A stretch of 64,000 bases of DNA from Escherichia coli (GTDB lineage: Bacteria > Pseudomonadota > Gammaproteobacteria > Enterobacterales > Enterobacteriaceae): assembly GCF_051903065.1 (NCBI RefSeq), contig NZ_CP178438.1. One strand, written 5' to 3'. Shown piece by piece: positions 41,785-57,895 of the stretch; within the stretch, counting starts at the first letter, position 1; each line of letters starts with the position of its first letter. A program made the position numbers and the translations under genes. The notes below the pieces were generated by a model that saw nothing but the letters and a program-made list of their open reading frames with translations, was not told the origin of the DNA and ran no database searches.

Positions 41785-42060
41785 GTGGCTTCTGTTTCTA
41801 TCAGCTGTCCCTCCTGTTCAGCTACTGACGGGGTGGTGCGTAACGGCAAAAGCACCGCCGGACATCAGCGCTATCTCTGCTCTCACTGCCGTAAAACATG
41901 GCAACTGCAGTTCACTTACACCGCTTCTCAACCCGGTACGCACCAGAAAATCATTGATATGGCCATGAATGGCGTTGGATGCCGGGCAACAGCCCGCATT
42001 ATGGGCGTTGGCCTCAACACGATTTTACGTCACTTAAAAAACTCAGGCCGCAGTCGGTAA
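41785..42060 (+). CDS. insA: IS1 InsA (transposition inhibitor / N-terminal part of transposase)
   Basis: 91 aa [43 protein letters not shown]... (GTG start). Confidence 0.93.
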
Positions 42061-42482
42061 CCTCGCGCATACAGCCGGGCAGTGACGTCATCGTCTGCGC
42101 GGAAATGGACGAACAGTGGGGCTATGTCGGGGCTAAATCGCGCCAGCGCTGGCTGTTTTACGCGTATGACAGGCTCCGGAAGACGGTTGTTGCGCACGTA
42201 TTCGGTGAACGCACTATGGCGACGCTGGGGCGTCTTATGAGCCTGCTGTCACCCTTTGACGTGGTGATATGGATGACGGATGGCTGGCCGCTGTATGAAT
42301 CCCGCCTGAAGGGAAAGCTGCACGTAATCAGCAAGCGATATACGCAGCGAATTGAGCGGCATAACCTGAATCTGAGGCAGCACCTGGCACGGCTGGGACG
42401 GAAGTCGCTGTCGTTCTCAAAATCGGTGGAGCTGCATGACAAAGTCATCGGGCATTATCTGAACATAAAACACTATCAATAA
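41979..42482 (+). CDS. insB: IS1 InsB frame (transposase InsAB' made by -1 frameshift at the A-run near 42036-42041)
   Basis: 167-aa -1 frame ORF overlapping the insA 3' end; slippery ttaaaaaac motif present. Confidence 0.9.
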
Positions 42483-42497
42483 GTTGGAGTCATTACC

Positions 42498-42506
42498 GAG
42501 CAGGCA
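42498..42506. repeat. IS1 target-site duplication, right copy (GAGCAGGCA)
   Basis: Identical 9-mer to 41721-41729. Confidence 0.8.
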
Positions 42507-42865
42507 ATGGCCACCGTTTATCTAACAGTGGCCATTTGATTTGAGGAAATGATGAAACATTATTCAGAAAATTAATTTAAAAAAACCATTCCTTAAGTCA
42601 AATATATATAAACGCCGAATAGCGATTAAATCCTTCTCAAAGAATGCACTGATAACATTGTGTTATTTTTATTGCCTCATTTTTCTCACTCACTTATAGT
42701 TGGTCCCTGCTGGCAGTAATTTAGTCATTTCAGAGATTTTTACTCTGATGTGCACTTACTGACTTATCTCACAAGTAATTTTTTCTCTAAATAAAGAATA
42801 GTGATGCCAGCAATTACAGTTAAAACTTGCTTTACTCGTAAAAACAATACTTTAATGGGGTTCTA

Positions 42866-43255
42866 ATGAGACATTACATGAAATGGTTTGCGGCTATTGC
42901 TGTTGTGGGTGCTTTAGCGGGTTGCGCGCGTACTGCGCCAATTGATCAGGTTCACTCAACCGTCAGCGCTGGTCATACCCAGGAACAAGTGAAAAAAGCG
43001 ATTCTGAAAGCTGGCGTTGAACGCAAATGGATTATGTCCGAAGCCGGACAAGGCATAATTAAAGCACGTCAACAGTCACGCGATCATTCAGCGGAAATAC
43101 GCATTAACTACACGGCATCCAGCTACGATATCAATTATGAAAATAGCCAGAACCTTCAAGCGTCAGGCGGACAAATTCATAAAAACTACAATCGCTGGGT
43201 CCGCAATCTCGACAAAGATATTCAACTGAATTTGTCAGCGGGCGCAGATTTATAA
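42866..43255 (+). CDS. small lipoprotein (first gene of the polyene-type cluster)
   Basis: 129 aa, signal peptide with lipobox MKWFAAIAVVGALAGC; alternative start ATG 42878. Confidence 0.75.
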   Translation: MRHYMKWFAAIAVVGALAGCARTAPIDQVHSTVSAGHTQEQVKKAILKAGVERKWIMSEAGQGIIKARQQSRDHSAEIRINYTASSYDINYENSQNLQASGGQIHKNYNRWVRNLDKDIQLNLSAGADL

Positions 43256-43314
43256 TTCCTCCTAAAGTCGGGCCGTTGCGGTCCGATAATAATTTAATTC
43301 CCTCTTAACAGGTT

Positions 43315-44382
43315 GTGCCCAACATGTACGAACAGGATTCTCTTAGCGCACTGGATGCGATTACCGAAGCTCAACGCATTGCCTTTGCCCCTATGCTTTT
43401 TCAAACAGCACTCTGCCTACGTAATGCGGGTGTACTTTCATATCTGGATCGGCAAGGCAAACATGGCGCAACGCTGGCTGATATCACCGAACATAGCCAT
43501 ATCAACGAATATGCTGCCAGCGTTCTGTTAGATATGGGCTTAAGCGGGCGAATTATTACCTGTAAAGAGGGAATTTATTACCTGGCGAAAATCGGTCATT
43601 ACCTCCTGCATGACACTATGACTCGCGTGAATATGGATTTCACCCAGGATGTCTGTTACCAGGGGCTCTTCTTCCTCGCCGATTCACTCAATGAAGGAAA
43701 ACCTTCCGGGTTAAAAGTATTTGGCGACTGGTCGACGATATATCCGGCACTTTCGCAATTACCAGACGCCGCTCGTGAAAGCTGGTTTGCGTTTGATCAT
43801 TACTATTCAGATGGCGCATTTAACGCCGCACTGCCTTATGTATTCGCCAACAACCCCACAACATTGTACGATGTAGGCGGCAATACGGGTAAGTGGGCTT
43901 TGCGTTGCTGCAAATACAATGAAAACATCGCCGTGACGTTATTAGATCTGCCACAACAAATCGTACTAGCGAAAGAAAATATCGCGAATGCAGGTTTTTC
44001 TGATCGCATAGATTTCCATGCGGTGGATATGCTAAGCGATGCCCCATTACCGGGCGAGGCTGATATCTGGTGGATGAGCCAATTTTTAGACTGTTTTTCA
44101 CCCGAACAAATAATTAGCATACTCAGCAAAATTGCCAGCGTAATGAAGCCTGGCGCAAAAGTTTGCATCATGGAGTTGTTCTGGGATGCGCAGCGGTTTG
44201 AAGCAGCATCGTTTAGCCTGAACGCGTCCTCACTTTATTTTACCTGCATGGCAAACGGTAACAGCCGTTTCTATAGTGCAGAGAAATTTTACGACTATCT
44301 GAATAAAGCAGGATTCCAGGTAGCAGAGCGCCACGATAATTTAGGCGTTGGGCATACACTTTTGATATGCCAAAAGAAATAA
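43315..44382 (+). CDS. class I SAM-dependent (O-)methyltransferase
   Basis: 355 aa; SAM-binding motif LYDVGGNTGKWAL; GTG start at 43315, alternative ATG at 43324. Confidence 0.8.
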   Translation: MPNMYEQDSLSALDAITEAQRIAFAPMLFQTALCLRNAGVLSYLDRQGKHGATLADITEHSHINEYAASVLLDMGLSGRIITCKEGIYYLAKIGHYLLHDTMTRVNMDFTQDVCYQGLFFLADSLNEGKPSGLKVFGDWSTIYPALSQLPDAARESWFAFDHYYSDGAFNAALPYVFANNPTTLYDVGGNTGKWALRCCKYNENIAVTLLDLPQQIVLAKENIANAGFSDRIDFHAVDMLSDAPLPGEADIWWMSQFLDCFSPEQIISILSKIASVMKPGAKVCIMELFWDAQRFEAASFSLNASSLYFTCMANGNSRFYSAEKFYDYLNKAGFQVAERHDNLGVGHTLLICQKK

Positions 44383-44422
44383 TCGTCACTTAATAATTTT
44401 GGTTTACCGCGGGCGCGCGTTG

Positions 44423-45145
44423 ATGAAATTTACATTAAATATTACCGACTGGCAGGCACTGGCGCCTGGACTTAGCGAAGCGCAGCAATGGCAAGCATGG
44501 TCGCGCCAGCCGTGGGCGATTGACCCTGCCGCGCCGTTGGCAAAATTAAGTGAACTGCCAATGATGACCGCCCGCCGCCTCAGTTCAGGCAGCAAACTGG
44601 CTGTTGAATGCGGTCTGGCAATGCTACGCCGCCATCAGCCAGACGCCGTTTTGTATACCAGTCGTCATGGCGAACTGGAGCGCAATTACCGCATTGTTCA
44701 TGCACTGGCAACCGAACAGGCGCTTTCTCCGACCGACTTCGCGCTCTCCGTACACAACTCTTCCGTGGGTAACCTGACCATTGCGGCCAAACAGCCGATC
44801 GTTTCGTCATCGCTTTCGGCTGGTCGCGACACTTTCCAGCAAGGTTTGTGTGAAGTGCTTAGCCTGTTACAAGCGGGATACCAGCGCGTGCTGATGGTCG
44901 ATTTTGACGGTTTCCTGCCCGAGTTTTATCACCCACAACTGCCATCAGAAATGCCGACCTGGCCGTACGCCGTCGCGCTGGTGATTGAAGCTGGCGATGA
45001 GTGGCAATGTGAAACGCAGTCAGCCATTGCGGGCAATGAAACAACACTGCCGCAAAGCATGTTGTTTTTACAGCACTATTTACAAAATGTAGACACATTT
45101 TCACTGCCTGGCGAGCGCGTGCAATGGCGCTGGAGCCACAGATGA
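44423..45145 (+). CDS. ketosynthase-like protein lacking the active-site Cys (chain-length-factor-like KS partner)
   Basis: ORF 44399..45145 (TTG in track); ATG at 44423 gives MKFTLNITDWQALAPG...; about 240 aa, thiolase-like N-terminal half without a C-x-S-S catalytic motif. Confidence 0.7.
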   Translation: MKFTLNITDWQALAPGLSEAQQWQAWSRQPWAIDPAAPLAKLSELPMMTARRLSSGSKLAVECGLAMLRRHQPDAVLYTSRHGELERNYRIVHALATEQALSPTDFALSVHNSSVGNLTIAAKQPIVSSSLSAGRDTFQQGLCEVLSLLQAGYQRVLMVDFDGFLPEFYHPQLPSEMPTWPYAVALVIEAGDEWQCETQSAIAGNETTLPQSMLFLQHYLQNVDTFSLPGERVQWRWSHR

Positions 45146-45963
45146 GTAAGCTGATGTCACGTCTGGAGTGGACCTGGCGACTGGTCATGACCGGGTTATG
45201 TTTTGCCCTGTTTGGTCTCGGCGGCCTGCTGCTTTCTGTCGTGTGGTTTAACATATTGTTAGTTTTGGTGTGGGATACTTCCCGCCGCCGTCGTTTGGCG
45301 CGTCGCAGCATTGCCGCCAGTTTTCGCCTGTTTTTAACTGTCGCGAAAGGGCTTGGCGTGCTGGATTATCGTATTGATGGCGCTGAAATTTTACGTCAGG
45401 AACGCGGTTGCCTCGTCGTAGCCAATCATCCCACGCTGATCGATTACGTGCTGCTGGCGTCAGTCATGCCAGAAACTGACTGCCTGGTGAAAAGCGCACT
45501 GTTAAAAAATCCTTTTCTTGGCGGCGTCGTGCGGGCGGCAGATTATTTAATCAACAGCGAAGCTGAAACCCTGTTACCCCGCTGCCAACAGCGACTGGCA
45601 CAGGGTGACACTATCCTGATTTTCCCCGAAGGCACACGAACGAAGCCCGGTGAAAAAATGACGCTGCAGCGCGGGGCGGCGAATATTGCCGTGCGCTGCG
45701 CCAGCGATTTACGCATCGTGACAATCGGCTGTAGCGAGCATCTGCTGGATAAACAAAGTAAATGGTATGACGTTCCACCTGACCGGCCGTTTTTTACGGT
45801 TGCAGTCCATGGTCGGGTTGAAATCAATAAATTTTACGATGCAACTTCACAAGAACCGGCGCTGGCAGCAAGGCAGTTAAACCGGCATCTTTTGCTTCAA
45901 TTACAACAAGGTTGTTTACCTCTCTCAGGAATAAATAATGCAAGCGCTTTATCTGGAAATTAA
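45142..45963 (+). CDS. PlsC-type (lysophospholipid) acyltransferase
   Basis: ORF 45124..45963; start at ATG 45142 forms an ATGA overlap with the upstream stop; motifs NHPTLIDYVLL (H-x4-D) and IFPEGTRT. Confidence 0.8.
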   Translation: MSKLMSRLEWTWRLVMTGLCFALFGLGGLLLSVVWFNILLVLVWDTSRRRRLARRSIAASFRLFLTVAKGLGVLDYRIDGAEILRQERGCLVVANHPTLIDYVLLASVMPETDCLVKSALLKNPFLGGVVRAADYLINSEAETLLPRCQQRLAQGDTILIFPEGTRTKPGEKMTLQRGAANIAVRCASDLRIVTIGCSEHLLDKQSKWYDVPPDRPFFTVAVHGRVEINKFYDATSQEPALAARQLNRHLLLQLQQGCLPLSGINNASALSGN

Positions 45964-46195
45964 AAACCTCATCATCAGCACCCTCAATCTGGACGAGTTG
46001 ACGCCTGATGATATCGATACCGACGCGCCGCTGTTTGGCGACGGTTTAGGGCTGGACTCTATCGATGCCCTGGAACTGGGACTGGCAGTAAAAAATGAGT
46101 ACGGCATCGTGCTCTCTGCGGAAAGCGAAGAGATGCGTCAGCACTTTTTCTCCGTCGCCACTCTGGCCTCTTTCATTGCTGCGCAACGTGCCTGA
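45938..46195 (+). CDS. acyl carrier protein 1
   Basis: 85 aa; phosphopantetheine-attachment motif GLGLDSIDALELG; SD agga 7 nt upstream. Confidence 0.88.
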   Translation: MQALYLEIKNLIISTLNLDELTPDDIDTDAPLFGDGLGLDSIDALELGLAVKNEYGIVLSAESEEMRQHFFSVATLASFIAAQRA

Positions 46196-46206
46196 GGAAA
46201 GCCATC

Positions 46207-46458
46207 ATGACAGAACAACAAACCGTCTATCAGGAAGTCTCAGCCCTGCTGGTTAAGCTGTTTGAAATCGATCCGCAGGACATCAAACCTGAAGCGCGCC
46301 TGTACGAAGATCTGGAACTGGACAGCATCGACGCCGTTGACATGATTGTGCACCTGCAAAAGAAAACCGGTAAGAAAATCAAGCCGGAAGAGTTTAAAGC
46401 AGTGCGTACAGTCCAGGATGTCGTCGAGGCTGTAGAACGCCTGCTACAAGAAGCCTGA
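46207..46458 (+). CDS. acyl carrier protein 2
   Basis: 83 aa; motif DLELDSIDAVDMI; SD gagga upstream. Confidence 0.88.
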   Translation: MTEQQTVYQEVSALLVKLFEIDPQDIKPEARLYEDLELDSIDAVDMIVHLQKKTGKKIKPEEFKAVRTVQDVVEAVERLLQEA

Positions 46459-46462
46459 TCTG

Positions 46463-47044
46463 ATGTCGGGCATTCGCTCGCTACCGATGATTAAGCTGCT
46501 GACTGGATTATTGCTGCTCGCCTGGCCGTTTGTGATTTGGTTTGGCTTAGCGCATAACGGCCTGCACTGGCTGTTACCGCTAATGGCGTTGCTGCTTTTG
46601 TTGCGTCTGCGCCAGACCCGTCGCCAGGCGGGGCCTTTACAAGCCGTCACGCAACTCGTCGCTGTCGTGGGCATCGCATTATGTGTCGCCAGCTTTATGT
46701 TGAAAACGCACCAGCTACTGCTGTTTTACCCGGTAGTGGTTAACGCGGTCATGCTGGCGGTTTTTGGCGGTTCGCTGTGGTCGGCAATGCCGATAGTTGA
46801 GCGGCTGGCGCGGTTGCAGGAGCCAGACCTCCCGGAAAAGGGCGTGCGCTATACCCGCCACGTCACGCAAATCTGGTGCGGCTTTTTCATCATTAACGGT
46901 GGAATTGCCCTCTTTACCGCGCTTTATGCCGATATGTCGTTATGGACCGCCTGGAACGGCATGATTGCTTATTTGTTGATGGGGACGTTAATGGCTGGTG
47001 AATGGCTGGTGCGCCGCCAGGTTATGAAAAGAGATCGCGCATGA
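46463..47044 (+). CDS. hypothetical integral membrane protein
   Basis: 193 aa, about 4-5 hydrophobic helices (LLTGLLLLAWPFVIWFGLAH...). Confidence 0.7.
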   Translation: MSGIRSLPMIKLLTGLLLLAWPFVIWFGLAHNGLHWLLPLMALLLLLRLRQTRRQAGPLQAVTQLVAVVGIALCVASFMLKTHQLLLFYPVVVNAVMLAVFGGSLWSAMPIVERLARLQEPDLPEKGVRYTRHVTQIWCGFFIINGGIALFTALYADMSLWTAWNGMIAYLLMGTLMAGEWLVRRQVMKRDRA

Positions 47045-48402
47045 AGCAGACCTTACCGCTTGCACGCTGGCTGACTGCGCCACGCCCTGATGACACACCC
47101 ATTGCGTGGCTGAACGAAAGTACCTGGACGCTGGGCGATTTGCGTCACGATGTCGCGCAACTTATCTGCCGCTTGCAGCAACAGCCGGGTGAACGCTGGG
47201 CGCTGTGCTTTGAGAACAGCTATCTGTTTATCGTTGCCCTGCTCGCCACGCTACACGCCGGAAAAACGCCGGTGCTTCCGGGGCATAACCGTGTTATCCA
47301 GCTTAACGAGCAACGTGAACTTTTTGATGGTGTGCTTAGCGACAGCGAACTTAACTGGCAAGGTTCATTGCTGTTGGTAGCAAGTTCCCCACAAGTCGCG
47401 ACACAATCCTTCACCTTTGCCGCTATAGCGCCAGAGGCTTATATCGAGCTGTTTACCTCCGGTTCCACGGGACAGCCGAAACGGGTGATTAAACCTGTTC
47501 ATTTGCTGGACCGTGAAGCAGAACTGCTGGCTGAACGATTAGGCGCACGTCTGGCGGATTGTCGTGTCATCGGTTCCGTATTGCCGCAGCATTTGTACGG
47601 CCTGACTTTTCGCGTTTTCCTGCCCATGGCGCTGGGATTACCCCTACATGCCGCCATGCTCTGGTATGTCGAACAGTTTGCCGCGTTGAGTCATCAGCAT
47701 CGCTATATCTTCATCAGCAGCCCGGCATTTTTGAAGCGTCTGGATACACAGCTTTCCCCACCGCCCGTTCAGGTGCTTCTCTCTGCTGGCGGTGAGCTAC
47801 CGTGGCAGGATGTACAACACACCGCGAGCTGGCTGCGCGTCTGGCCTGATGAAATCTACGGCAGCACGGAAACCGGCGTCATCGCCTGGCGCTACCGCGA
47901 ACAAGAGCAACGCCGCTGGCTACCCCTCCCAGGTATGCAGTTCCAGGCCGAAGGCGATGCCTTTCGCCTCTTTTCACCGCTGATAGCGGAAGATAACGGC
48001 CTGTTACTCGACGATATCTTACAGTTTAGCGAAGATGGTCAGTTCCATCTGATGGGGCGTCGTGGGCGCATCGTTAAGATTGAAGAAAAACGTATTTCAC
48101 TCCAGGAAGTAGAACAACGTCTACTGGCGCTGGACGGCATTCGCGAGGCGGCGGCAGTTCCCGTTACGCGCGGCGGGCGTCAGAGCATAGGCGTTTTGCT
48201 GGTGCTGGATGACGAAGCTCATCTGCAATGGCAGAACGGCGGCGGGCATAGCCAGGAAATGACCTGGCGGCGTTTACTGCGCCCGACGCTGGAGCCAGTT
48301 GCTATTCCGCGTTACTGGCGCGTTATTGATGAAATGCCAGTAAACAGTATGAACAAGCGTGTCTATGCGCAATTACAGGAGTTATTTCATGAAGCCCCAT
48401 GA
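47041..48402 (+). CDS. adenylate-forming enzyme (AMP-dependent synthetase/ligase; probable starter-acid:ACP ligase)
   Basis: ORF 47002..48402; start at ATG 47041 (ATGA overlap with upstream stop); AMP-binding motifs FTSGSTGQPKRV and YGSTETG. Confidence 0.82.
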   Translation: MKQTLPLARWLTAPRPDDTPIAWLNESTWTLGDLRHDVAQLICRLQQQPGERWALCFENSYLFIVALLATLHAGKTPVLPGHNRVIQLNEQRELFDGVLSDSELNWQGSLLLVASSPQVATQSFTFAAIAPEAYIELFTSGSTGQPKRVIKPVHLLDREAELLAERLGARLADCRVIGSVLPQHLYGLTFRVFLPMALGLPLHAAMLWYVEQFAALSHQHRYIFISSPAFLKRLDTQLSPPPVQVLLSAGGELPWQDVQHTASWLRVWPDEIYGSTETGVIAWRYREQEQRRWLPLPGMQFQAEGDAFRLFSPLIAEDNGLLLDDILQFSEDGQFHLMGRRGRIVKIEEKRISLQEVEQRLLALDGIREAAAVPVTRGGRQSIGVLLVLDDEAHLQWQNGGGHSQEMTWRRLLRPTLEPVAIPRYWRVIDEMPVNSMNKRVYAQLQELFHEAP

Positions 48403-48742
48403 AATCGAGCGCCATCAGGCACAAACGAATCACCTTGAAATTGTTCTGCATCTCAGGGCGGATCTGTTCTGGTTTCGCGGTCATTTTGCCGTGCAACCAT
48501 TACTCCCAGGAGTTGCGCAAATCGATTGGGCGATGAGCTACGCGCTCAATCTGCTCGCGCCTGGCTGGCGTTTTCACTCCATTCAGAACATAAAATTCCA
48601 GTCTCCGTTGCTGCCGGAAAACCGCGTCACGCTCGCGCTTAACTGGCAGGAAGAACGCCAGATTCTGAGCTTTAGCTATCAGCGTCACGACGGTGACGCC
48701 CGCCACACCGCCAGTAGCGGGAAGATACGCCTATGTCGGTAA
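48389..48742 (+). CDS. FabZ/FabA-like hotdog-fold 3-hydroxyacyl-ACP dehydratase
   Basis: ORF 48359..48742; start ATG 48389 with SD aggag 8 nt upstream; motif FRGHFAVQPLLPGVAQIDWAM resembles FabZ GHFP..P..PGVL..EA.AQ. Confidence 0.78.
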   Translation: MKPHEIERHQAQTNHLEIVLHLRADLFWFRGHFAVQPLLPGVAQIDWAMSYALNLLAPGWRFHSIQNIKFQSPLLPENRVTLALNWQEERQILSFSYQRHDGDARHTASSGKIRLCR

Positions 48743-50409
48743 ACTTTTCTCCCTGCGTGTTGATCCCCTGCTACAACCACGGCGCGATGATGCCGGGCGT
48801 GCTGGCGCGTCTTAAGCCATTTAATCTGCCCTGTATTGTGGTGGACGACGGCAGCGATGCCGCCACGCAACAGCAACTGGACAGTCTGCTTGCCGAACAG
48901 CCTGGCGTGACCTTAATCCGCCTGGCAGAAAACGCAGGCAAAGGCGCGGCAGTGATGCGTGGCTTACAGGCAGCGGCAGACGCAGGGTTCAGCCATGCGG
49001 TGCAGGTGGATGCTGACGGTCAACATGCGATTGAAGATATCCCCAAACTGCTGGCACTCGCTGAACAACACCCTGCGGCGCTGATCTCCGGCCAGCCAAT
49101 TTACGATGACTCCATCCCCCGCTCACGGCTTTACGGGCGCTGGGTCACCCACGTCTGGGTATGGATCGAAACGCTCTCCCTGCAACTGAAAGACAGCATG
49201 TGCGGCTTTCGCGTTTATCCGGTTGCGCCAACGCTGCAACTGGCAAAACACGCCACCATCGGCAAGCGGATGGATTTCGACACTGAAGTGATGGTGCGCC
49301 TCTACTGGCAGGGAAACACCAGCTATTTCGTGCCGACCCGCGTCACCTATCCACTGGACGGGCTTTCGCATTTTGATGCCCTGAAAGATAACGTCCGCAT
49401 CTCGCTCATGCACACGCGTCTGTTTTTCGGCATGTTGCCGCGTATTCCTTCACTACTGATGCGCCGCTCTTCCAGCCACTGGGCGCGGCAGAGTGAAGTG
49501 AAAGGATTATGGGGAATGCGCCTGATGCTGCTGGTCTGGCGTCTGCTGGGAAGAACGGCGTTTAGCGCGCTGCTTTACCCGGTGGTGGGCGTCTACTGGC
49601 TCACTGCTGCTCGTGCGCGCAAAGCGTCGCAAGACTGGCTCGCCCGTGTACGACAGCATCAACCACAGGCGGCAAAACTCAACAGCTATCAGCACTTTCT
49701 ACGTTTCGGTAATGCCATGCTCGACAAAATCGCCAGCTGGCGCGGCGAGCTACAACTGGGGCACGATGTGCTGTTTGCGCCAGGCGCAGAAGCGGCGCTT
49801 GACGTCAGCGATCCGCGCGGCAAATTGCTGCTGGCCTCGCATCTTGGCGATGTGGAAGTGTGCCGGGCGCTGGCAAAAATTCAGGGCTACAAAACCATTA
49901 ACGCGCTGGTGTTTAGCGAAAACGCCCAACGCTTTAAACAGATAATGCAGGAGATGGCTCCTCAGGCAGGTATTAACCTGATGCCGGTAACAGATATCGG
50001 CCCGGAAACCGCCATCCTGCTGAAAGAGAAGCTGGATAACGGCGAATGGGTGGCGATTGTCGGTGACCGCATCGCCGTCACCCCGCAACGCGGCGGCGAC
50101 TGGCGCGTCTGCTGGAGTCCGTTTATGGGCCAGCCTGCGCCCTTCCCACAGGGGCCGTTTATTCTCGCGTCTATTTTGCGCTGCCCGGTGAATCTGATTT
50201 TCGCCCTGCGCCAGCGCGGCAAGCTGCATATTCACTGCGAAACCTTTGCCGACCCGCTGCTGTTGCCGCGTGGCGAACGCCAACAGGCGCTGCAAAACGC
50301 TATCGACCACTACGCCGCGCGTCTGGAACATTACGCGCTCCAGTCGCCCCTCGACTGGTTTAATTTTTTCGATTTCTGGCAACTGCCGGAAATTCAGGAC
50401 AAGGAGTAA
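48733..50409 (+). CDS. two-domain protein: N-terminal GT2-family glycosyltransferase plus C-terminal domain of uncertain (possibly acyltransferase-like) function
   Basis: 558 aa; GT-A motifs VLIPCYNHG, VVDDGSDA, QVDADGQH in the first about 250 aa; C-terminal half not confidently assigned by eye. Confidence 0.75.
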   Translation: MSVNFSPCVLIPCYNHGAMMPGVLARLKPFNLPCIVVDDGSDAATQQQLDSLLAEQPGVTLIRLAENAGKGAAVMRGLQAAADAGFSHAVQVDADGQHAIEDIPKLLALAEQHPAALISGQPIYDDSIPRSRLYGRWVTHVWVWIETLSLQLKDSMCGFRVYPVAPTLQLAKHATIGKRMDFDTEVMVRLYWQGNTSYFVPTRVTYPLDGLSHFDALKDNVRISLMHTRLFFGMLPRIPSLLMRRSSSHWARQSEVKGLWGMRLMLLVWRLLGRTAFSALLYPVVGVYWLTAARARKASQDWLARVRQHQPQAAKLNSYQHFLRFGNAMLDKIASWRGELQLGHDVLFAPGAEAALDVSDPRGKLLLASHLGDVEVCRALAKIQGYKTINALVFSENAQRFKQIMQEMAPQAGINLMPVTDIGPETAILLKEKLDNGEWVAIVGDRIAVTPQRGGDWRVCWSPFMGQPAPFPQGPFILASILRCPVNLIFALRQRGKLHIHCETFADPLLLPRGERQQALQNAIDHYAARLEHYALQSPLDWFNFFDFWQLPEIQDKE

Positions 50410-50412
50410 AGG

Positions 50413-50835
50413 GTGCTTAACGATCCCCGATTTACCGCTGAAGTCGAGCTGACCATTCCCTTTCACGACGTCGATATGATGGGCGTGGCCTGGCACGGTA
50501 ACTATTTTCGCTACTTTGAAGTGGCCCGCGAGGCGCTGCTCAACCAGTTCAATTACGGCTATCGGCAGATGAAAGAGTCCGGTTATTTGTGGCCAGTGGT
50601 CGATGCGCGGGTGAAATATCGCCACGCTCTCACCTTTGAGCAACGCATCCGCGTGCGTGCGCATATCGAAGAGTTCGAAAACCGTCTGCGGATTGGCTAT
50701 CAGATTTTCGATGCCGAAACGGGCAAACGCGCCACCACCGGATACACCATTCAGGTCGCGGTCGACGAGCAAAGCCGCGAACTGTGCTTTGTCAGCCCCG
50801 ATATTCTGTTTGAACGCATGGGAGTCAAACCATGA
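50413..50835 (+). CDS. hotdog-fold acyl-(ACP/CoA) thioesterase (4HBT-like)
   Basis: 140 aa; GTG start 50413 with SD aaggag 6 nt upstream; MLNDPRFTAEVELTIPFHDVDMMGVAWHGNYFRYFE... typical 4HBT/YbgC-like N-terminus. Confidence 0.75.
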   Translation: MLNDPRFTAEVELTIPFHDVDMMGVAWHGNYFRYFEVAREALLNQFNYGYRQMKESGYLWPVVDARVKYRHALTFEQRIRVRAHIEEFENRLRIGYQIFDAETGKRATTGYTIQVAVDEQSRELCFVSPDILFERMGVKP

Positions 50836-51437
50836 AATTTTTACCGCTGCTGGCGCTGCTGATTAGCCCGTTTGTGAGCGCCCTGACCCTGGACGATCTT
50901 CAACAACGTTTTACCGAACAGCCGGTGATCCGCGCCCATTTCGATCAAACCCGGACGATTAAAGATCTGCCGCAGCCGCTGCGATCTCAGGGCCAGATGT
51001 TGATCGCCCGCGACCAGGGGTTATTGTGGGATCAAACCTCACCGTTCCCCATGCAACTATTACTGGACGATAAACGCATGGTGCAGGTGATCAACGGTCA
51101 GCCGCCGCAAATCATCACGGCAGAAAATAACCCGCAGATGTTCCAGTTTAACCACCTGCTGCGCGCGCTGTTCCAGGCCGATCGCAAAGTGCTGGAACAA
51201 AACTTCCGCGTCGAATTTGCCGACAAAGGCGAAGGCCGCTGGACGCTGCGCCTGATGCCGACCACCACGCCACTGGATAAAATTTTCAACACCATCGATC
51301 TCGCCGGGCAAACCTATCTGGAGAGCATTCAGCTTAATGATAAACAGGGCGATCGCACCGATATTGCTCTTACCCAACATCAACTGACACCAGCGCAACT
51401 GACCGATGACGAACGCCAACGTTTTGCCGCCCAGTAA
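50832..51437 (+). CDS. LolA-like outer-membrane lipoprotein carrier family protein
   Basis: 201 aa with signal peptide MKFLPLLALLISPFVSA; ATGA overlap with upstream gene. Confidence 0.72.
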   Translation: MKFLPLLALLISPFVSALTLDDLQQRFTEQPVIRAHFDQTRTIKDLPQPLRSQGQMLIARDQGLLWDQTSPFPMQLLLDDKRMVQVINGQPPQIITAENNPQMFQFNHLLRALFQADRKVLEQNFRVEFADKGEGRWTLRLMPTTTPLDKIFNTIDLAGQTYLESIQLNDKQGDRTDIALTQHQLTPAQLTDDERQRFAAQ

Positions 51438-53724
51438 ACGCCCCGCGCTGTTATGGGGGCTAGTCTGCCTGGTCATGGCGGCGGCGTTGCTGATCCTGCT
51501 GCCGCAATCACGGCTGAACAGTAGCGTGCTGGCTATGTTACCCAAACAGGCGATGGGCGATATTCCCCCAGCGCTGAATGACGGCTTTATGCAGCGTCTG
51601 GACCGCCAACTGGTGTGGCTGGTCAGCCCCGGTAAAGAGGCTAATCCCAGGGTCGCTCAGGAGTGGCTGACGCAGCTGCAAAAATCCGCTGCGCTTGGCG
51701 ACATTAAAGGGCCAATGGATGCCGCCAGCCAGCAGGCGTGGGGAGCGTTTTTCTGGCAGCACCGCAACGGCCTGATTGACCACGACACCCGCGCCCGCCT
51801 GCAAAACGGCGGCGAAGCGCAGGCGCAGTGGATCCTCTCCCAGCTTTATTCTGCATTCTCCGGGGTAAGCGGCAAGGAGCTGCAAAACGATCCGCTGATG
51901 TTAATGCGCGGCTCGCAGCTGGCGATGGCAAAAAATGGCCAGCGTTTGCGGCTGATGGACGGCTGGCTGGTGACGCAGGATCCCCAGGGCAACTACTGGT
52001 ATCTGCTGCACGGCGAACTGGCGGGATCGTCGTTTGATATGCAGCAAACCCACCAGCTCATCACGACCCTGAATACGCTGGAAAAGGATCTGAAAACGCG
52101 TTACCCACAGGCGCAGTTGCTCTCGCGCGGCACGGTATTTTACAGCGATTACGCCAGTCAACAGGCGAAGCAGGATATCTCAACCCTGGGCGTGGCAACG
52201 CTGCTGGGGGTGATATTGCTGATTGTGGCGGTGTTCCGCTCTTTGCGCCCGTTGCTGCTTTGCGTGATTTCCATCGGCATCGGCGCGCTGGCGGGAACGG
52301 TCGCCACTTTATTGATTTTCGGTGAATTACACCTGATGACGCTGGTGATGAGCATGAGCGTTATCGGCATTTCCGCTGACTACACGCTCTATTATCTCAC
52401 CGAGCGGATGGTTCACGGCAACGACGTTTCGCCGTGGCAAAGCCTGGCGAAAGTACGCAATGCCTTGCTACTGGCGCTGCTCACCACCGTGGCGGCGTAT
52501 CTGATTATGATGCTCGCCCCCTTCCCCGGCATTCGCCAGATGGCGATTTTTGCCGCCGTCGGGTTGAGCGCCTCCTGTCTGACCGTCCTGTTCTGGCATC
52601 CGTGGCTGTGCCGTGGCCTGCCGGTGCGTCCGGTTCCGGCGATGGCGCTGATGCTACGCTGGCTGGCAGCGTGGCGGCGTAATAAAAAACTGTCGCTGGG
52701 TCTGCCCGTCGCGCTGGCGCTGTTTTCGCTGGCGGGGATGTCAATGCTACGCGTCGATGACGATATCTCGCAGTTACAGGCGCTACCGCAGCATATTCTG
52801 GCGCAGGAAAAAGCCATTACCGCCCTGACCAGGCAGAGCGTCGATCAAAAATGGTTTGTGGTTTACGGCGATTCGCCACAGCAAACATTGCGGCGACTGG
52901 AGAAATATACCGCCTCACTTGAGTATGCGAAAAAAGAGGGGCTTATCAGCAACTACCGCACCATTCCGCTGAACTCCCTTGCGCGGCAGGAGGAAGATTT
53001 ACAACTGCTGAAAACGGCGGCCCCGACAGTAACAAAAGCGCTGCAAAATGCCGGGCTGACGGCAGTGAACCCGGATCTCAACGCCATGCCAGTGAACGTT
53101 GATGAATGGCTGGCAAGCCCCGCCAGTGAAGGCTGGCGTCTGCTGTGGCTGACGCTGGAAAACGGCGAAAGCGGCGTACTGGTGCCGGTTGAAGGGGTTA
53201 AAAGTAGCGCGTTGATGCAGGAAATCGCCAGCTATTACCCTTGCGGCATTGCCTGGGTTGATCGCAAAAGCACCTTTGATGAATTGTTCGCACTTTACCG
53301 TTATGTCTTAACCGGCTTGTTGCTGGTGGCGCTGGCGGTGATTGCCTGCGGCGCAGTGGCCCGTCTCGGCTGGCGCAAAGGGCTTATCAGCCTGGTGCCT
53401 TCGGTGCTTTCGCTGGGCTGCGGTCTGGCGGTGCTGGCGATGAGCGGGCAGGCGGTGAATATCTTTTCGCTTCTGGCGCTGGTGCTGGTGCTTGGCATCG
53501 GCATCAATTACACGCTGTTTTTCAGTAATCCGCGCGGCACACCGTTAACTTCGCTACTGGCGATCACACTGGCAATGCTCACCACCTTGCTGACGCTGGG
53601 AATGTTGGTATTCAGCGCCACCCAGGCCATCAGCAGTTTTGGCATTGTGCTGGTGAGCGGTATTTTCACCGCCTTCCTGCTTTCGCCGCTGGCTATGCCC
53701 GATAAAAAGAGAACAAAAAAATGA
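51406..53724 (+). CDS. MMPL/RND-superfamily exporter
   Basis: 772 aa, two clusters of TM helices separated by soluble loops; 32-nt overlap with upstream gene. Confidence 0.8.
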   Translation: MTNANVLPPSKRPALLWGLVCLVMAAALLILLPQSRLNSSVLAMLPKQAMGDIPPALNDGFMQRLDRQLVWLVSPGKEANPRVAQEWLTQLQKSAALGDIKGPMDAASQQAWGAFFWQHRNGLIDHDTRARLQNGGEAQAQWILSQLYSAFSGVSGKELQNDPLMLMRGSQLAMAKNGQRLRLMDGWLVTQDPQGNYWYLLHGELAGSSFDMQQTHQLITTLNTLEKDLKTRYPQAQLLSRGTVFYSDYASQQAKQDISTLGVATLLGVILLIVAVFRSLRPLLLCVISIGIGALAGTVATLLIFGELHLMTLVMSMSVIGISADYTLYYLTERMVHGNDVSPWQSLAKVRNALLLALLTTVAAYLIMMLAPFPGIRQMAIFAAVGLSASCLTVLFWHPWLCRGLPVRPVPAMALMLRWLAAWRRNKKLSLGLPVALALFSLAGMSMLRVDDDISQLQALPQHILAQEKAITALTRQSVDQKWFVVYGDSPQQTLRRLEKYTASLEYAKKEGLISNYRTIPLNSLARQEEDLQLLKTAAPTVTKALQNAGLTAVNPDLNAMPVNVDEWLASPASEGWRLLWLTLENGESGVLVPVEGVKSSALMQEIASYYPCGIAWVDRKSTFDELFALYRYVLTGLLLVALAVIACGAVARLGWRKGLISLVPSVLSLGCGLAVLAMSGQAVNIFSLLALVLVLGIGINYTLFFSNPRGTPLTSLLAITLAMLTTLLTLGMLVFSATQAISSFGIVLVSGIFTAFLLSPLAMPDKKRTKK

Positions 53725-54305
53725 TCAAATCCACATTCTGGCGAGCGTTCGCCCTGACCGCTACGCTTATCCTCACCGGCTGTAGCCACTCGCAACCAGA
53801 ACAGGAAGGCCGCCCGCAGGCGTGGCTGCAACCTGGCACGCGCATCACGCTGCCGGCACCAGGGATTTCACCCGCAGTCAATTCGCAGCAACTGTTGACC
53901 GGCAGCTTCAACGGCAAAACCCAGTCGCTGCTAGTAATGCTTAACGCCGACGACCAGAAAATCACCCTTGCCGGGCTGTCGTCGGTCGGCATTCGCCTGT
54001 TTCTGGTGACCTACGATGCAAAAGGGCTACGCGCCGAGCAATCCATCGTCGTCCCGCAGTTGCCGCCCGCAAGTCAGGTGCTGGCTGACGTAATGCTCAG
54101 CCACTGGCCGATTAGCGCCTGGCAACCGCAACTTCCCGCAGGATGGACACTTCGCGACAACGGTGACAAACGCGAGCTGCGTAACGCCAGCGGCAAACTG
54201 GTCACGGAAATCACCTATCTGAATCGCCAGGGAAAACGCGTGCCAATCAGCATTGAGCAGCATGTCTTTAAATACCACATCACCATTCAATACTTAGGTG
54301 ACTGA
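53721..54305 (+). CDS. lipoprotein of unknown function (DUF3261-like)
   Basis: 194 aa, lipobox LILTGC after signal peptide; ATGA overlap with MMPL gene. Confidence 0.72.
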   Translation: MIKSTFWRAFALTATLILTGCSHSQPEQEGRPQAWLQPGTRITLPAPGISPAVNSQQLLTGSFNGKTQSLLVMLNADDQKITLAGLSSVGIRLFLVTYDAKGLRAEQSIVVPQLPPASQVLADVMLSHWPISAWQPQLPAGWTLRDNGDKRELRNASGKLVTEITYLNRQGKRVPISIEQHVFKYHITIQYLGD

Positions 54306-54306
54306 T

Positions 54307-55476
54307 ATGATTTATATTTCCGCCGTCGGCATGATCAACGCCCTGGGAAATAACCTTGACGAAATCGCAGCCAACCTGGCTCGCGGTGTCGCCCCCGGAA
54401 TGCGCCCACGCGCAGGCTGGTTGCAGGGGCATCCGCAGGCGGTCCTGGCTGGCGTGGATGGCGAGCTTCCGCTTATCCCGGAAAAATTCGCTGCGCATCG
54501 CTCGCGCAACAATCAGATCCTGCTGGCGGCGCTGGCGCAGCTCCAGCCGCAGGTTGATGACACTATAGCGAAATATGGTCGCGAGCGCATCGCGATTGTA
54601 CTTGGCACCAGCACCTCCGGCCTGCATGAAGGCGACACGCACGTTAACCTGCGCACCCACGGGCAGCCGAGCACCACATGGCATTACGCGCAACAGGAAC
54701 TCGGCGATCCGTCGCGTTTTCTCAGCCACTGGCTGGCGCTCGACGGCCCGGCTTATACCCTTTCAACCGCCTGCTCCTCCAGCGCCAGAGCGATGATCAG
54801 CGGGCGCAGGCTTATCGAGGCGGGGCTGGTCGATGCCGCCATTGTGGGTGGCGCAGACACCCTGAGCCGGATGCCGATTAACGGTTTTCACAGCCTCGAA
54901 TCGCTGTCGCCAACCTTATGTCAGCCGTTCGGTCGTGACCGCGCAGGTATCACCATTGGTGAAGGGGCGGGGCTAATGCTGCTGACCCGCGAACCGCAGC
55001 CCATCGCATTGCTGGGCGTTGGTGAATCGAGCGACGCTTACCATATTTCAGCTCCGCATCCGCAGGGCGAAGGAGCGATCCGCGCTATTAATCAGGCGCT
55101 GACCGATGCGCAGCTTACGCCGGATGACGTCGGCTATATCAACCTGCACGGCACCGCCACACAGCTCAACGACCAGATTGAATCAATGGTGGTTAACGCC
55201 CTGTTTGGCGAACGCGTACCGTGCAGCTCCACCAAACATTTGACCGGACACACGCTGGGCGCAGCGGGCATTACCGAGGCGGCAATTAGTATGTTGATTT
55301 TACAGCGTGATTTACCGCTGCCCGCTCAGGACTTCAGCCTGTCGCCGCGCGATCCCACGCTGCCACCGTGTGGCATTATCGAAAAACCGCAGCCGCTGGC
55401 ACGTCCGGTGATCCTGTCCAATTCCTTCGCCTTTGGCGGCAATAACGCCAGCATTCTGCTCGGGAGGGTTTCGTGA
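54307..55476 (+). CDS. beta-ketoacyl-ACP synthase (catalytically competent KS)
   Basis: ORF 54298..55476 (GTG); ATG 54307 has SD taggtga 7 nt upstream; catalytic triad motifs STACSSS, HGTAT, GHTLGAAG. Confidence 0.85.
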   Translation: MIYISAVGMINALGNNLDEIAANLARGVAPGMRPRAGWLQGHPQAVLAGVDGELPLIPEKFAAHRSRNNQILLAALAQLQPQVDDTIAKYGRERIAIVLGTSTSGLHEGDTHVNLRTHGQPSTTWHYAQQELGDPSRFLSHWLALDGPAYTLSTACSSSARAMISGRRLIEAGLVDAAIVGGADTLSRMPINGFHSLESLSPTLCQPFGRDRAGITIGEGAGLMLLTREPQPIALLGVGESSDAYHISAPHPQGEGAIRAINQALTDAQLTPDDVGYINLHGTATQLNDQIESMVVNALFGERVPCSSTKHLTGHTLGAAGITEAAISMLILQRDLPLPAQDFSLSPRDPTLPPCGIIEKPQPLARPVILSNSFAFGGNNASILLGRVS

Positions 55477-55937
55477 GCCACTATTTATCCCCCGGTGCTT
55501 ATCTGCCCCACGACGCGCCCATGTTACTGCTGGAAGACGTGGTGAGCGTCAGCGATGACAGCGCGGTGTGCCGCGTGACGGTTTCGCCCAGTGGCGTACT
55601 GGCACCGTTTCTCGACCCGGACGGCAATCTCCCCGGCTGGTTTACCCTTGAACTGATGGCGCAAACCGTCGGCGTCTGGTCTGGCTGGCATCGCCACCAG
55701 CAGGGCAAAAACAGTATTGAGTTAGGGATGATACTGGGCGCGCGTGAATTGCTTTGCACCACTGGCATTCTGCCCGCAGGCCAGACGCTGACCATTACCG
55801 TCAAACTGCTGATGCAAGACGATCGCTTCGGCAGTTTTGAGTGCAGCATCAACGACGGCGAGGCAACGGGCCGCATTAACACCTTCCAGCCGACCGCGGA
55901 AGAACTTACCACCCTGTTTCAACAAGGAGCGTCCTGA
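55473..55937 (+). CDS. FabA-like hotdog-fold dehydratase
   Basis: 154 aa; GTG start overlapping upstream stop (GTGA) with SD ggagg; hotdog-length protein with no other recognisable catalytic motifs. Confidence 0.7.
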   Translation: MSHYLSPGAYLPHDAPMLLLEDVVSVSDDSAVCRVTVSPSGVLAPFLDPDGNLPGWFTLELMAQTVGVWSGWHRHQQGKNSIELGMILGARELLCTTGILPAGQTLTITVKLLMQDDRFGSFECSINDGEATGRINTFQPTAEELTTLFQQGAS

Positions 55938-56668
55938 TGAGTCGTTCAGTTCTGGTTACTGGTGCCAGCAAAGGCATTGGTCGCGCCATCGCCTGCCAAC
56001 TGGCGGCAGACGGCTTTAACATTGGCGTTCACTATCACCGTGACGCCACAGGCGCTCAGGAAACGCTGAATGCCATTGTCGCCAATGGGGGTAACGGGCG
56101 TTTGCTCAGTTTCGACGTCGCAAACCGCGAACAGTGTCGGGAAGTGCTGGAGCATGAGATCGCGCAACACGGTGCCTGGTACGGCGTGGTCAGTAACGCC
56201 GGGATCGCCCGCGATGCCGCTTTTCCGGCTTTAAGCGATGACGACTGGGATGCGGTGATCCACACCAACCTCGACAGTTTCTACAACGTCATTCAGCCGT
56301 GCATTATGCCGATGATCGGCGCACGCCAGGGTGGGCGCATCATCACGCTATCCTCGGTTTCCGGCGTAATGGGCAATCGCGGCCAGGTGAATTACAGCGC
56401 TGCCAAAGCCGGAATTATCGGCGCAACAAAAGCGCTGGCTATCGAACTCGCGAAGCGCAAAATCACCGTCAACTGCATCGCGCCGGGGCTTATTGATACC
56501 GGGATGATCGAAATGGAAGAGAGCGCTCTGAAAGAGGCAATGTCGATGATCCCCATGAAACGTATGGGCCAGGCGGAAGAAGTTGCCGGGCTTGCCAGTT
56601 ATTTAATGTCTGATATTGCGGGTTACGTCACCCGCCAAGTTATTTCCATCAACGGAGGGATGTTATGA
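55937..56668 (+). CDS. 3-oxoacyl-ACP reductase (SDR, FabG-like)
   Basis: 243 aa; VLVTGASKGIGRAIA cofactor motif, catalytic NYSAAKAG (YxxxK). Confidence 0.88.
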   Translation: MSRSVLVTGASKGIGRAIACQLAADGFNIGVHYHRDATGAQETLNAIVANGGNGRLLSFDVANREQCREVLEHEIAQHGAWYGVVSNAGIARDAAFPALSDDDWDAVIHTNLDSFYNVIQPCIMPMIGARQGGRIITLSSVSGVMGNRGQVNYSAAKAGIIGATKALAIELAKRKITVNCIAPGLIDTGMIEMEESALKEAMSMIPMKRMGQAEEVAGLASYLMSDIAGYVTRQVISINGGML

Positions 56669-57894: not shown

Positions 57895-57895
57895 T

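Follow-up and report, generated by a model that had tools for sequence, protein, structure and literature searches.

ApeJ of the Escherichia coli aryl polyene cluster, a fusion of a GT2 glycosyltransferase and an LpxL/LpxM/PatA-type acyltransferase with a likely role in anchor assembly

The open reading frame (ORF) at positions 48733-50409 of the window, a stretch of 64,000 nucleotides of the E. coli chromosome, is apeJ of the known E. coli aryl polyene (APE) pigment cluster. Its product joins, end to end, two enzymes for which many other APE clusters have separate, neighbouring genes. A GT2 glycosyltransferase domain with a GT-A fold makes up the N-terminal half. The C-terminal half belongs, as indicated by its profile, fold and relatives, to the acyltransferases of the LpxL/LpxM/PatA type (PF03279), a branch of the lysophospholipid-acyltransferase superfamily. 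We consider it likely that ApeJ is a bifunctional enzyme that assembles the APE anchor in E. coli, with both domains acting as proposed below. An anchor-assembly role has already been put forward in the literature, where the protein is called 'glycosyltransferase/acyltransferase' (Johnston et al., 2021, and others), and ApeJ is thus not new. What the present analysis adds is the family placement of the acyltransferase half (LpxL/LpxM/PatA, with H370/E375), the position of the junction (aa 245-249) and a census of fused and split forms.

The apeJ coding sequence lies on the + strand, like all features given below unless stated otherwise, and runs from an ATG start to a TAA stop, encoding 558 aa. 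The gene is assigned as the orthologue of CFT073 c1194, since the two qPCR primers published for apeJ/c1194 find perfect matches within the ORF (0 mismatches; 49896-49916 on the + strand and 50024-50043 on the - strand). In an E. coli genome that carries a 100% identical copy, RefSeq gives the gene these same two ends; the RefSeq product name is only 'glycosyltransferase family 2 protein'. Of 5426 complete E. coli genomes, 823 carry the gene with 95-100% conservation, so that a chance ORF is no concern. The copy in the window is an allele that shares 95-99% identity with the majority of the other E. coli copies, and the main E. coli ApeJ protein cluster has the same length (558 aa, 98% identity). 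A 340-aa antisense ORF (49750-50772, - strand) and several smaller ORFs inside apeJ were dropped as genes, as RefSeq annotates none of them and phyla-level homologues retain the + strand frame.

The surrounding APE cluster apeA-apeR (42878-57894) comprises 18 genes, all on the + strand, and sits between yhhT and acpT-nikA, with acpT (57896-58483) directly following. It was delineated with the RefSeq annotation of the identical locus L001 (window coordinate = L001 coordinate + 37732), the gene table in Johnston et al. (2021) and Pfam scans. The scans, which covered all ORFs, and the RefSeq annotation agree that the full apeA-R gene set is present; the 100% identical annotated locus includes ApeI/ApeP-family dehydratases, a chain-length factor, two acyl carrier proteins (ACPs) and LolA-like, MMPL and DUF3261 genes. 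Within the cluster, apeJ is located between the PF22818 ApeI-like dehydratase gene on its 5' side and apeK on its 3' side. Its start overlaps the end of apeI by 10 nt, and apeK (50413-50835; GTG start at 50413), a 4HBT-fold thioesterase by PF13279 (E 1.1e-16) and RefSeq annotation, begins 3 nt past the apeJ stop. Further upstream, apeE and apeF (45938-46458) encode two acyl carrier proteins with PF00550 matches. The gene at 45142-45963, which the initial annotation had described as a PlsC-type acyltransferase, is indeed one: it is apeD, matches PF01553 (E 1.3e-19) and is named 'lysophospholipid acyltransferase family protein' by RefSeq. In the case of ApeJ of CFT073 (c1194) and Xenorhabdus doucetiae, the gene, its position between apeI and apeK and the 18-gene cluster are the same, and nothing substantive differs.

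The glycosyltransferase domain (48733-49467) spans aa 1-245 and ends in a long helix (aa 216-243). The PF00535 model (Glycos_transf_2) covers aa 8-131 at E 1.8e-20, its 74 bits exceeding the cut-off of 23.3, and the two GT-A motifs that had initially been noticed in the N-terminal ~250 aa are both present. The DDGSD motif (48844-48858; aa 38-42), in which D39 and G40 are invariant, contains what we take to be the nucleotide-sugar binding Asp of GT-A enzymes. The DADGQH motif (49009-49026; aa 93-98) is a DxD metal/diphosphate-binding motif with invariant D93, D95, Q97 and H98, and it aligns with 'DADlQH' of Pyrococcus furiosus DPMS (PDB 5mlz), which has the DxD-x-Q-H motif in common with ApeJ. 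Conservation in this domain was assessed on 44 fused homologues with 38-84% identity. In the AF2 model, the pLDDT exceeds 90 across aa 10-240.

In both sequence and structure, the nearest relatives of the N-terminal domain are DPMS (5mlz), GtrB (5ekp), ArnC (9bhc) and PpgS. The domain profile matches DPMS at 4e-14, GtrB at 1.7e-12 and ArnC at 1.7e-11, and Foldseek matched the model to ArnC, GtrB, DPMS, GpgS and TarP. The equivalog thresholds of the DPMS, GtrB, ArnC and PpgS member families are not reached: the best NCBIfam match, PpgS (2e-14), scores 53.5 bits against a cut-off of 370, and ArnC scores 24.6 bits against 529. DPMS, GtrB and ArnC moreover carry C-terminal transmembrane helices, whereas the GT2 part of ApeJ has none of its own, with no hydrophobic window before aa 263. 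Similarly, the GT2 proteins of split systems have a length of about 251-279 aa and possess only the long helix equivalent to aa 216-243.

The acyltransferase domain (49477-50406) covers aa 249-558. The initial annotation had seen a separate C-terminal domain of ~300 aa that was possibly acyltransferase-like, and both parts of this proposal are borne out. Direct searches with the E. coli sequence were of limited reach. In Pfam, the isolated C-terminal half (aa 245-558) gave no match even at E 10, NCBIfam returned a weak, sub-threshold PatA-family match (E 0.009), and a single-sequence PDB search retrieved GT2 relatives only. Since these searches fell short, the domain was classified through a family profile, structure prediction and its relatives. 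A first homologue search was of no use for a profile, since the 120 matches listed were all close copies from enterobacteria (82-98% identity); the required diversity came from an all-against-representatives search. The resulting ApeJ-family profile matches LpxM at 2.5e-7, and 64 of 72 relatives with 32-48% identity match PF03279 (Lip_A_acyltrans; best 2.9e-19). Modelled alone, the C-terminal half yields a pTM of 0.90, and its fold resembles LpxM and PatA more closely than it does the other members of the superfamily.

Several positions of this domain are strongly conserved. The H-x4-E motif 'HLGDVE' (49840-49857), with H370 and E375 as candidate catalytic pair, aligns on 'HFGTWE' of Acinetobacter baumannii LpxM (5kn7), the Glu of which is the catalytic E127, and PDB entry 5knk, titled as a catalytic-residue substitution (E127A), reads 'HFGTWA' at this site. 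Both homologue alignments show H370 and G372 as invariant and E375 with at least 90% conservation. D445-R446 (50065-50070), in the second conserved block of the domain, is invariant in both alignments as well, with D445 opposite the Asp of 'ILPDHTP' in LpxM, and so is G474. At the start of the domain, both predicted models contain two hydrophobic/amphipathic helices (49498-49605; aa 256-272 and 274-291) with a kink at the invariant G273. Their Kyte-Doolittle 19-residue maxima (1.37-1.38) stay under the classical transmembrane score and Arg residues occur within them; these helices probably form a membrane-association element that opens the acyltransferase unit. Similar to LpxM and LpxL (5kn7, 5knk; PF03279), ApeJ has the H-x4-E motif, but the E. 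coli C-terminal domain remains below the Pfam threshold and the two amphipathic helices after the fused GT2 domain take the place of the single N-terminal transmembrane helix of the LpxM/LpxL enzymes.

The two domains are joined by a linker (49468-49497; aa 246-255) that marks the fusion junction. The AF2 model of full-length ApeJ has a pLDDT of 89.7 and a sole internal low-confidence stretch (aa 247-256), with values below 50 internally only at aa 247-252 and 254-256. This low-pLDDT linker falls where, in split systems, the first gene stops and the second begins: the GT2 protein of a split homologue ends opposite aa 245 and the acyltransferase protein starts opposite aa 249. The split GT2 protein of locus L002 aligns to aa 3-245 of ApeJ with 56% identity. 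Among the 150 best 50%-identity representatives, 76 are stand-alone acyltransferases and 62 have an ApeJ-type GT2 part (51 of these are about full length or longer, the others being shorter or truncated); fused and split forms are about equally common among the sequence clusters. The stand-alone acyltransferase genes lie directly 3' of a separate GT2 gene at the same position of syntenic APE clusters, and across the family the GT2 part is either fused with the acyltransferase or coupled to it in translation. The scenario in which the C-terminal half is simply an extended GT2 accessory region was rejected, as roughly one in two of the related 50%-identity clusters has this half as a stand-alone gene and as it folds on its own.

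The proposed function builds on the APE lipid of Xenorhabdus, the cluster of which was called highly similar by its authors. In this lipid, glycerol-phosphate-GalNAc forms the backbone and the APE is bound as an ester to O-6 of the sugar (2020 preprint). In Xenorhabdus, ApeD acylates the sn-2 position and the X. doucetiae delta-apeJ mutant accumulates acyl-cFA-glycerol-phosphate. According to the Xenorhabdus model, ApeJ first puts GalNAc on this acylated glycerol-phosphate and next forms the ester between the sugar and the polyene bound to ApeE; an acyl-ACP- or acyl-CoA-dependent O-acylation of a membrane glycolipid was proposed from the metabolite profile of the mutant only. The E. coli delta-apeJ mutant keeps part of its pigment and makes late intermediates, with the mature lipid absent (Johnston et al., 2021). 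The idea that this gene and the PlsC-type enzyme together serve to conjugate the polyene to a glycolipid or lysophospholipid-like anchor, already voiced in the initial annotation, matches both the Xenorhabdus structure and the E. coli delta-apeD and delta-apeJ phenotypes. A literature search for later biochemical work on ApeJ or the E. coli APE lipid led to no studies other than the preprint of 2020, the genetics paper of 2021 and an expression preprint of 2026, and in vitro activity of either ApeJ domain is reported in none of the literature searched.

By analogy with this structure, taken from a preprint on another genus, E. coli may make the same lipid. ApeD would then produce a diacyl-glycerol-phosphate intermediate, to the phosphate of which domain 1 (aa 1-245) would most likely transfer a HexNAc from a UDP-sugar in a metal-dependent reaction, the sugar being GalNAc in Xenorhabdus. 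Domain 2 (aa 249-558) would subsequently use an H370/E375 charge relay, most likely to transfer the polyene from ApeE to the 6-OH of the sugar. Both domains are presumably held at the cytoplasmic face of the inner membrane by the amphipathic helices aa 216-243 and 256-291, and ApeLMN would then export the product. The mycobacterial phosphatidylinositol-mannoside 6-O-acyltransferase PatA (PDB 5f2t, 5oce, 7ojt; only 15-18% identity) offers an equivalent to the second step: PatA acylates the 6-OH of mannose on phosphatidylinositol mannosides. Its donor is palmitoyl-CoA instead of the ACP-bound polyene proposed for ApeJ, its acceptor is mannose on phosphatidylinositol instead of GalNAc-1-phosphate, and it is, unlike ApeJ, not fused to a glycosyltransferase. 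In the case of LpxM/LpxL, the acceptor is a 3-hydroxyacyl chain of lipid A, as opposed to the sugar hydroxyl of a glycophospholipid proposed here. If the published Xenorhabdus model is right, the first step resembles that of DPMS, GtrB, ArnC and PpgS in that the acceptor is a membrane-lipid phosphate, yet polyprenyl phosphate for the polyisoprenyl-phosphate glycosyltransferases and diacylglycerol phosphate for ApeJ.

The stereochemistry of the first step deserves attention. GT2 enzymes, including the lipid-phosphate transferases nearest to the ApeJ N-terminal domain, are inverting and form a beta linkage from a UDP-alpha-sugar. The GalNAc-1-phosphate of Xenorhabdus was reported as alpha (J H1-H2 2.8 Hz; 2020 preprint) and therefore conflicts with this expectation. 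Counting against the bifunctional model are this reported alpha anomer, the GT2 part devoid of the transmembrane helices of DPMS, GtrB and ArnC, and the C-terminal domain that is sub-threshold in Pfam and NCBIfam. A more specific reading, which we regard as doubtful, is that the GT2 half derives from a polyprenyl-phosphate transferase, has lost its transmembrane helices and was retargeted to diacylglycerol phosphate, directly building a 'phosphatidyl-HexNAc' head group. A biochemically characterized enzyme with such an activity was not encountered in the literature searched. If this retargeting were true, the alpha linkage would imply an unusual retaining GT2-like enzyme or a non-canonical donor, or else the published head-group mechanism would be wrong.

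Alternatively, the GT2 domain could be a true polyprenyl-phosphate glycosyltransferase that makes undecaprenyl-P-HexNAc as a periplasmic donor, from which another enzyme transfers the sugar, while the acyltransferase works on a different substrate. All closest sequence and structure relatives are polyprenyl-phosphate transferases (ArnC, GtrB and PpgS work in this way), and the alpha anomer could be accounted for by a route of two steps, the second of them carried out by another inverting transferase. However, neither the RefSeq annotation nor the Pfam scans reveal a second glycosyltransferase in the APE cluster, of GT-C type or other, and the domain does not have the membrane helices of its relatives. 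Its family-wide fusion or translational coupling to the acyltransferase and the direct accumulation of a glycerol-phosphate lipid in the delta-apeJ mutant likewise speak against it, and we hold this alternative to be unlikely.

Equally improbable to us is a lipid A-type secondary acyltransferase that places the polyene or another acyl chain on lipid A or a lipid A-like glucosamine glycolipid, which would make the E. coli anchor LPS-derived. The domain does belong to the LpxL/LpxM family, and lipid A was named as a possible anchor by Johnston et al. (2021). Still, the product of the highly similar Xenorhabdus cluster is a glycerol-phosphate-GalNAc lipid, the presence of an own PlsC-type enzyme and a GT2 in the cluster fits a de novo glycophospholipid assembly, and PatA, which is structurally as close, acylates a sugar on a glycerophospholipid and not lipid A. 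By far the least probable is a catalytically inert C-terminal half, an extension of the glycosyltransferase for membrane anchoring or scaffolding only. Such a role would agree with the missing Pfam domain in the E. coli C-terminal half and with the RefSeq name, which mentions a glycosyltransferase only. It is contradicted by the invariant catalytic His and the at least 90% conserved Glu, both aligned on the H-x4-E motif of LpxM with its E127, by the invariant D445, R446 and G474, by the confident independent fold prediction and by the 76 stand-alone genes among the 150 representative clusters.

In summary, we have placed the acyltransferase half of ApeJ, left unannotated by Pfam and RefSeq in E. 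coli, in the LpxM/PatA family, with a candidate catalytic pair. The H370/E375 placement, the junction and the mismatch between the alpha linkage and an inverting GT2 enzyme could guide mutagenesis and biochemistry. [quoted passage not shown] As the bifunctional anchor-assembly enzyme of this pathway, ApeJ would be the step that turns a free pigment into a membrane lipid.

The C-terminal half of ApeJ (aa ~249-558) is an independent acyltransferase domain of the LpxL/LpxM/PatA type, belonging to the lysophospholipid-acyltransferase superfamily. For ApeJ itself, Pfam gives no match to this half even at an E-value of 10, NCBIfam returns a weak PatA-family match alone (E 0.009), and the RefSeq product name at the identical locus, 'glycosyltransferase family 2 protein', covers the GT2 half and leaves the remainder unnamed. 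With aa 245-558 as query and 1.84 billion cluster representatives as database, 3042 relatives reach E ≤0.001; of the best 150, 62 have an ApeJ-like GT2 part at the N-terminus and 76 stand alone, at 293-360 aa. In the C-domain alignment, whose 72 members share 32-48% identity with the query, 64 match the Lip_A_acyltrans family (PF03279; best E 2.9e-19). The profile of this alignment matches Acinetobacter baumannii LpxM (5kn7; E 2.5e-7) and PatA (E 0.015). The motif SHLGDVE (H370...E375) aligns on PHFGTWE of LpxM; in PDB entry 5knk, whose title gives E127A as a catalytic-residue substitution, this very position reads HFGTWA. H370, G372, D445, R446 and G474 are invariant in the homologue alignments, while E375 is at least 90% conserved. 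Based on the stand-alone relatives, the split loci described below, the PF03279 matches and the LpxM profile match, the separate and 'possibly acyltransferase-like' domain of the initial annotation is thus supported on both counts, and an extended GT2 accessory region lacking its own fold is excluded.

Two stand-alone relatives were traced to contigs (loci L002, L003 and L004), and both lie in syntenic aryl polyene (APE) clusters where the acyltransferase gene directly follows, and overlaps, a separate GT2 gene of 251-279 aa. Alignment of the L002 pair with ApeJ places the GT2 protein on aa 3-245 (56% identity) and its acyltransferase partner on aa 249-558 (47%). The fusion junction falls at the sole low-confidence internal stretch of the ApeJ AlphaFold2 model (aa 247-256). 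In the metagenomic cluster L004:1729-6635, apeJ is split into a GT2 of 251 aa and an acyltransferase of 307 aa (PF03279), and apeH and apeI form a single fused gene (551 aa). This cluster also has an aromatic ammonia-lyase gene (PF00221) inserted ahead of the thioesterase gene, suggesting that its aryl starter is supplied by a different route. The metagenomic protein P0126 (1185 aa) combines AMP-binding (ApeH-like), ApeI-like dehydratase, GT2 and Lip_A_acyltrans domains in one polypeptide. Their order equals the gene order apeH-apeI-apeJ, suggesting that the corresponding steps are physically coupled.

The N-terminal half is a bona fide GT2, closest to enzymes that glycosylate a membrane-lipid phosphate, yet outside all of those equivalog families. 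This follows from a PF00535 (Glycos_transf_2) match at aa 8-131 (E 1.8e-20), from invariant D39, D93, D95, Q97 and H98 across 44 fused homologues (38-84% identity), and from its profile and structural neighbours. The 44-homologue profile ranks Pyrococcus dolichol-phosphate mannose synthase (DPMS) first (4e-14, DADgQH aligned on DADlQH), followed by GtrB (1.7e-12), ArnC (1.7e-11) and, below these, other GT2 enzymes. Foldseek with the full-length AlphaFold2 model (pLDDT 89.7) retrieves ArnC, GtrB and DPMS as top GT-A matches, whereas the best NCBIfam model, PpgS (polyprenyl-phospho-GalNAc synthase), reaches 53.5 bits and so stays far short of its cut-off (370). Both motifs noted initially are present, DDGSD at aa 38-42 (48844-48858) and DADGQH at aa 93-98 (49009-49026).

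Unlike DPMS-, GtrB-, ArnC- and PpgS-type enzymes, the GT2 domain of ApeJ has no C-terminal transmembrane helices: the hydropathy scan finds no hydrophobic window before aa 263, and naturally split GT2 proteins stop after a long helix equivalent to aa 216-243. In structure models, the acyltransferase unit starts in two helices, aa 256-272 and 274-291, with a kink between them at G273, which is invariant. They contain arginines, and their hydropathy maxima (1.37-1.38) fall below those of a classical transmembrane helix. Both domains require cytoplasmic donors, a UDP-sugar and acyl-ACP. In fused ApeJ, helices aa 256-291 should be unable to make one membrane crossing; together with helix aa 216-243 they most likely form an interfacial or re-entrant anchor.

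The gene is a single unbroken ORF (48733..50409, + strand; ATG start, 558 aa, TAA stop) that overlaps the final 10 nt of the upstream ORF and is followed after 3 nt by the next, a tightly coupled operon arrangement. An antisense ORF of 340 aa with a TTG start (49750-50772, -) lies within apeJ and apeK; it has no RefSeq annotation and nothing points to a gene. By RefSeq annotation of the identical locus, apeJ takes tenth place in a series of 18 co-directional genes flanked by yhhT on one side and acpT-nikA on the other. Its predecessors encode, in order, a lipoprotein, methyltransferase, chain-length factor, lysophospholipid acyltransferase, two ACPs, a hypothetical membrane protein, an AMP-binding enzyme and an ApeI-family dehydratase; a thioesterase, LolA-like protein, MMPL transporter, DUF3261 protein, ketosynthase, ApeP-family dehydratase, FabG2 and a ketosynthase follow. 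Pfam scans of every cluster ORF agree with this annotation, and the cluster corresponds gene for gene to apeA-apeR of E. coli CFT073, where apeJ (c1194) is listed as 'glycosyltransferase / acyltransferase' (Johnston et al., 2021). Both c1194 qPCR primers, taken from a 2026 preprint of the same group, match inside the ORF with 0 mismatches (49896-49916, +; 50024-50043, -), where no chance matches are expected. Sequence correspondence of cluster and primers thus identifies the gene as apeJ. Pfam gives no match at E 0.001 for apeG (193 aa, 46463-47044, +; RefSeq hypothetical protein) or apeA (129 aa, 42866-43255, +; RefSeq lipoprotein), whose pathway roles are conjectural (Johnston et al., 2021). 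The phosphopantetheinyl transferase gene acpT (57896-58483, +) lies 1 nt after apeR; as the homologous enzyme in EDL933 activates that strain's ApeE/F homologues (Johnston et al., 2021), acpT is probably a functional member of the cluster.

The chromosome of E. coli ECNB21-M121 carries a 100% identical apeJ. Among 5426 complete E. coli genomes, 823 (~15%) have a copy of at least 95% identity, in each case single and chromosomal and never plasmid-borne. G+C is 0.55-0.59 across the cluster (42000-58000) versus about 0.50 in the window's first 30 kb, with a drop to 0.46 at the cluster's left edge (42-44 kb). This shift and the patchy, always chromosomal presence of the cluster fit horizontal acquisition of an island bordered by yhhT and acpT.

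In structure, the second domain stands closest to PatA, which acylates the 6-OH of a hexose carried by a glycerophospholipid; LpxL and LpxM take acyl-ACP as donor. The APE cluster of Xenorhabdus doucetiae is described by its authors as highly similar to the CFT073 cluster, and the mature APE lipids of this species are built on a glycerol-phosphate-GalNAc backbone. They bear a saturated acyl chain and a conjugated C26:5 acyl at sn-2, the latter proposed to be installed by ApeD, and O-6 of the GalNAc is esterified with the aryl polyene (Xenorhabdus preprint). An acyl-cFA-glycerol-phosphate intermediate builds up in ΔapeJ, and the authors conclude that ApeJ works in two steps, adding GalNAc and then transferring the ApeE-bound polyene onto that sugar (Xenorhabdus preprint). 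E. coli ΔapeD and ΔapeJ are partly pigmented and make late intermediates without the mature lipid (Johnston et al., 2021). Our domain assignments fit this model well: the GT2 domain, whose relatives glycosylate lipid phosphates, would transfer the sugar onto the phosphate of a phosphatidate-like lipid, and the acyltransferase domain would place the ApeE-bound polyene on the sugar of the resulting glycophospholipid, in parallel with the 6-OH acylation by PatA and the acyl-ACP use of LpxL/LpxM. The PlsC-type gene apeD (45142-45963) matches PF01553 (E 1.3e-19). Lipid structure, mutants and domain assignments thus support the initial proposal that ApeJ and this enzyme join the polyene to a glycolipid or phospholipid anchor. 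The literature search found no in vitro biochemistry of ApeJ.

GT2 enzymes, including DPMS, GtrB and ArnC, invert, and direct transfer from a UDP-alpha-sugar to phosphate is then expected to yield the beta anomer. The GalNAc-1-phosphate of the published lipid is reported as alpha (J H1-H2 2.8 Hz; Xenorhabdus preprint), which does not fit an inverting GT2 domain (48733-49467). The mismatch leaves room for GalNAc addition through a polyprenyl-phosphate intermediate, although the cluster contains no second glycosyltransferase for such a route, and equally for an atypical mechanism of the GT2 domain, given the alpha product where an inverting enzyme should produce beta.

In summary, the ORF belongs to the named, genetically characterised ApeJ family, and its bifunctional nature is already in the literature (Johnston et al., 2021; Xenorhabdus preprint; 2026 preprint). 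Our additions are incremental: they place the acyltransferase half beside LpxM and PatA with the candidate catalytic pair H370/E375, define the exact fusion junction, and show fused and two-gene forms to be roughly even among the best 150 of 3042 relatives, while also bringing to light the four-domain ApeH-ApeI-GT2-acyltransferase megafusion.
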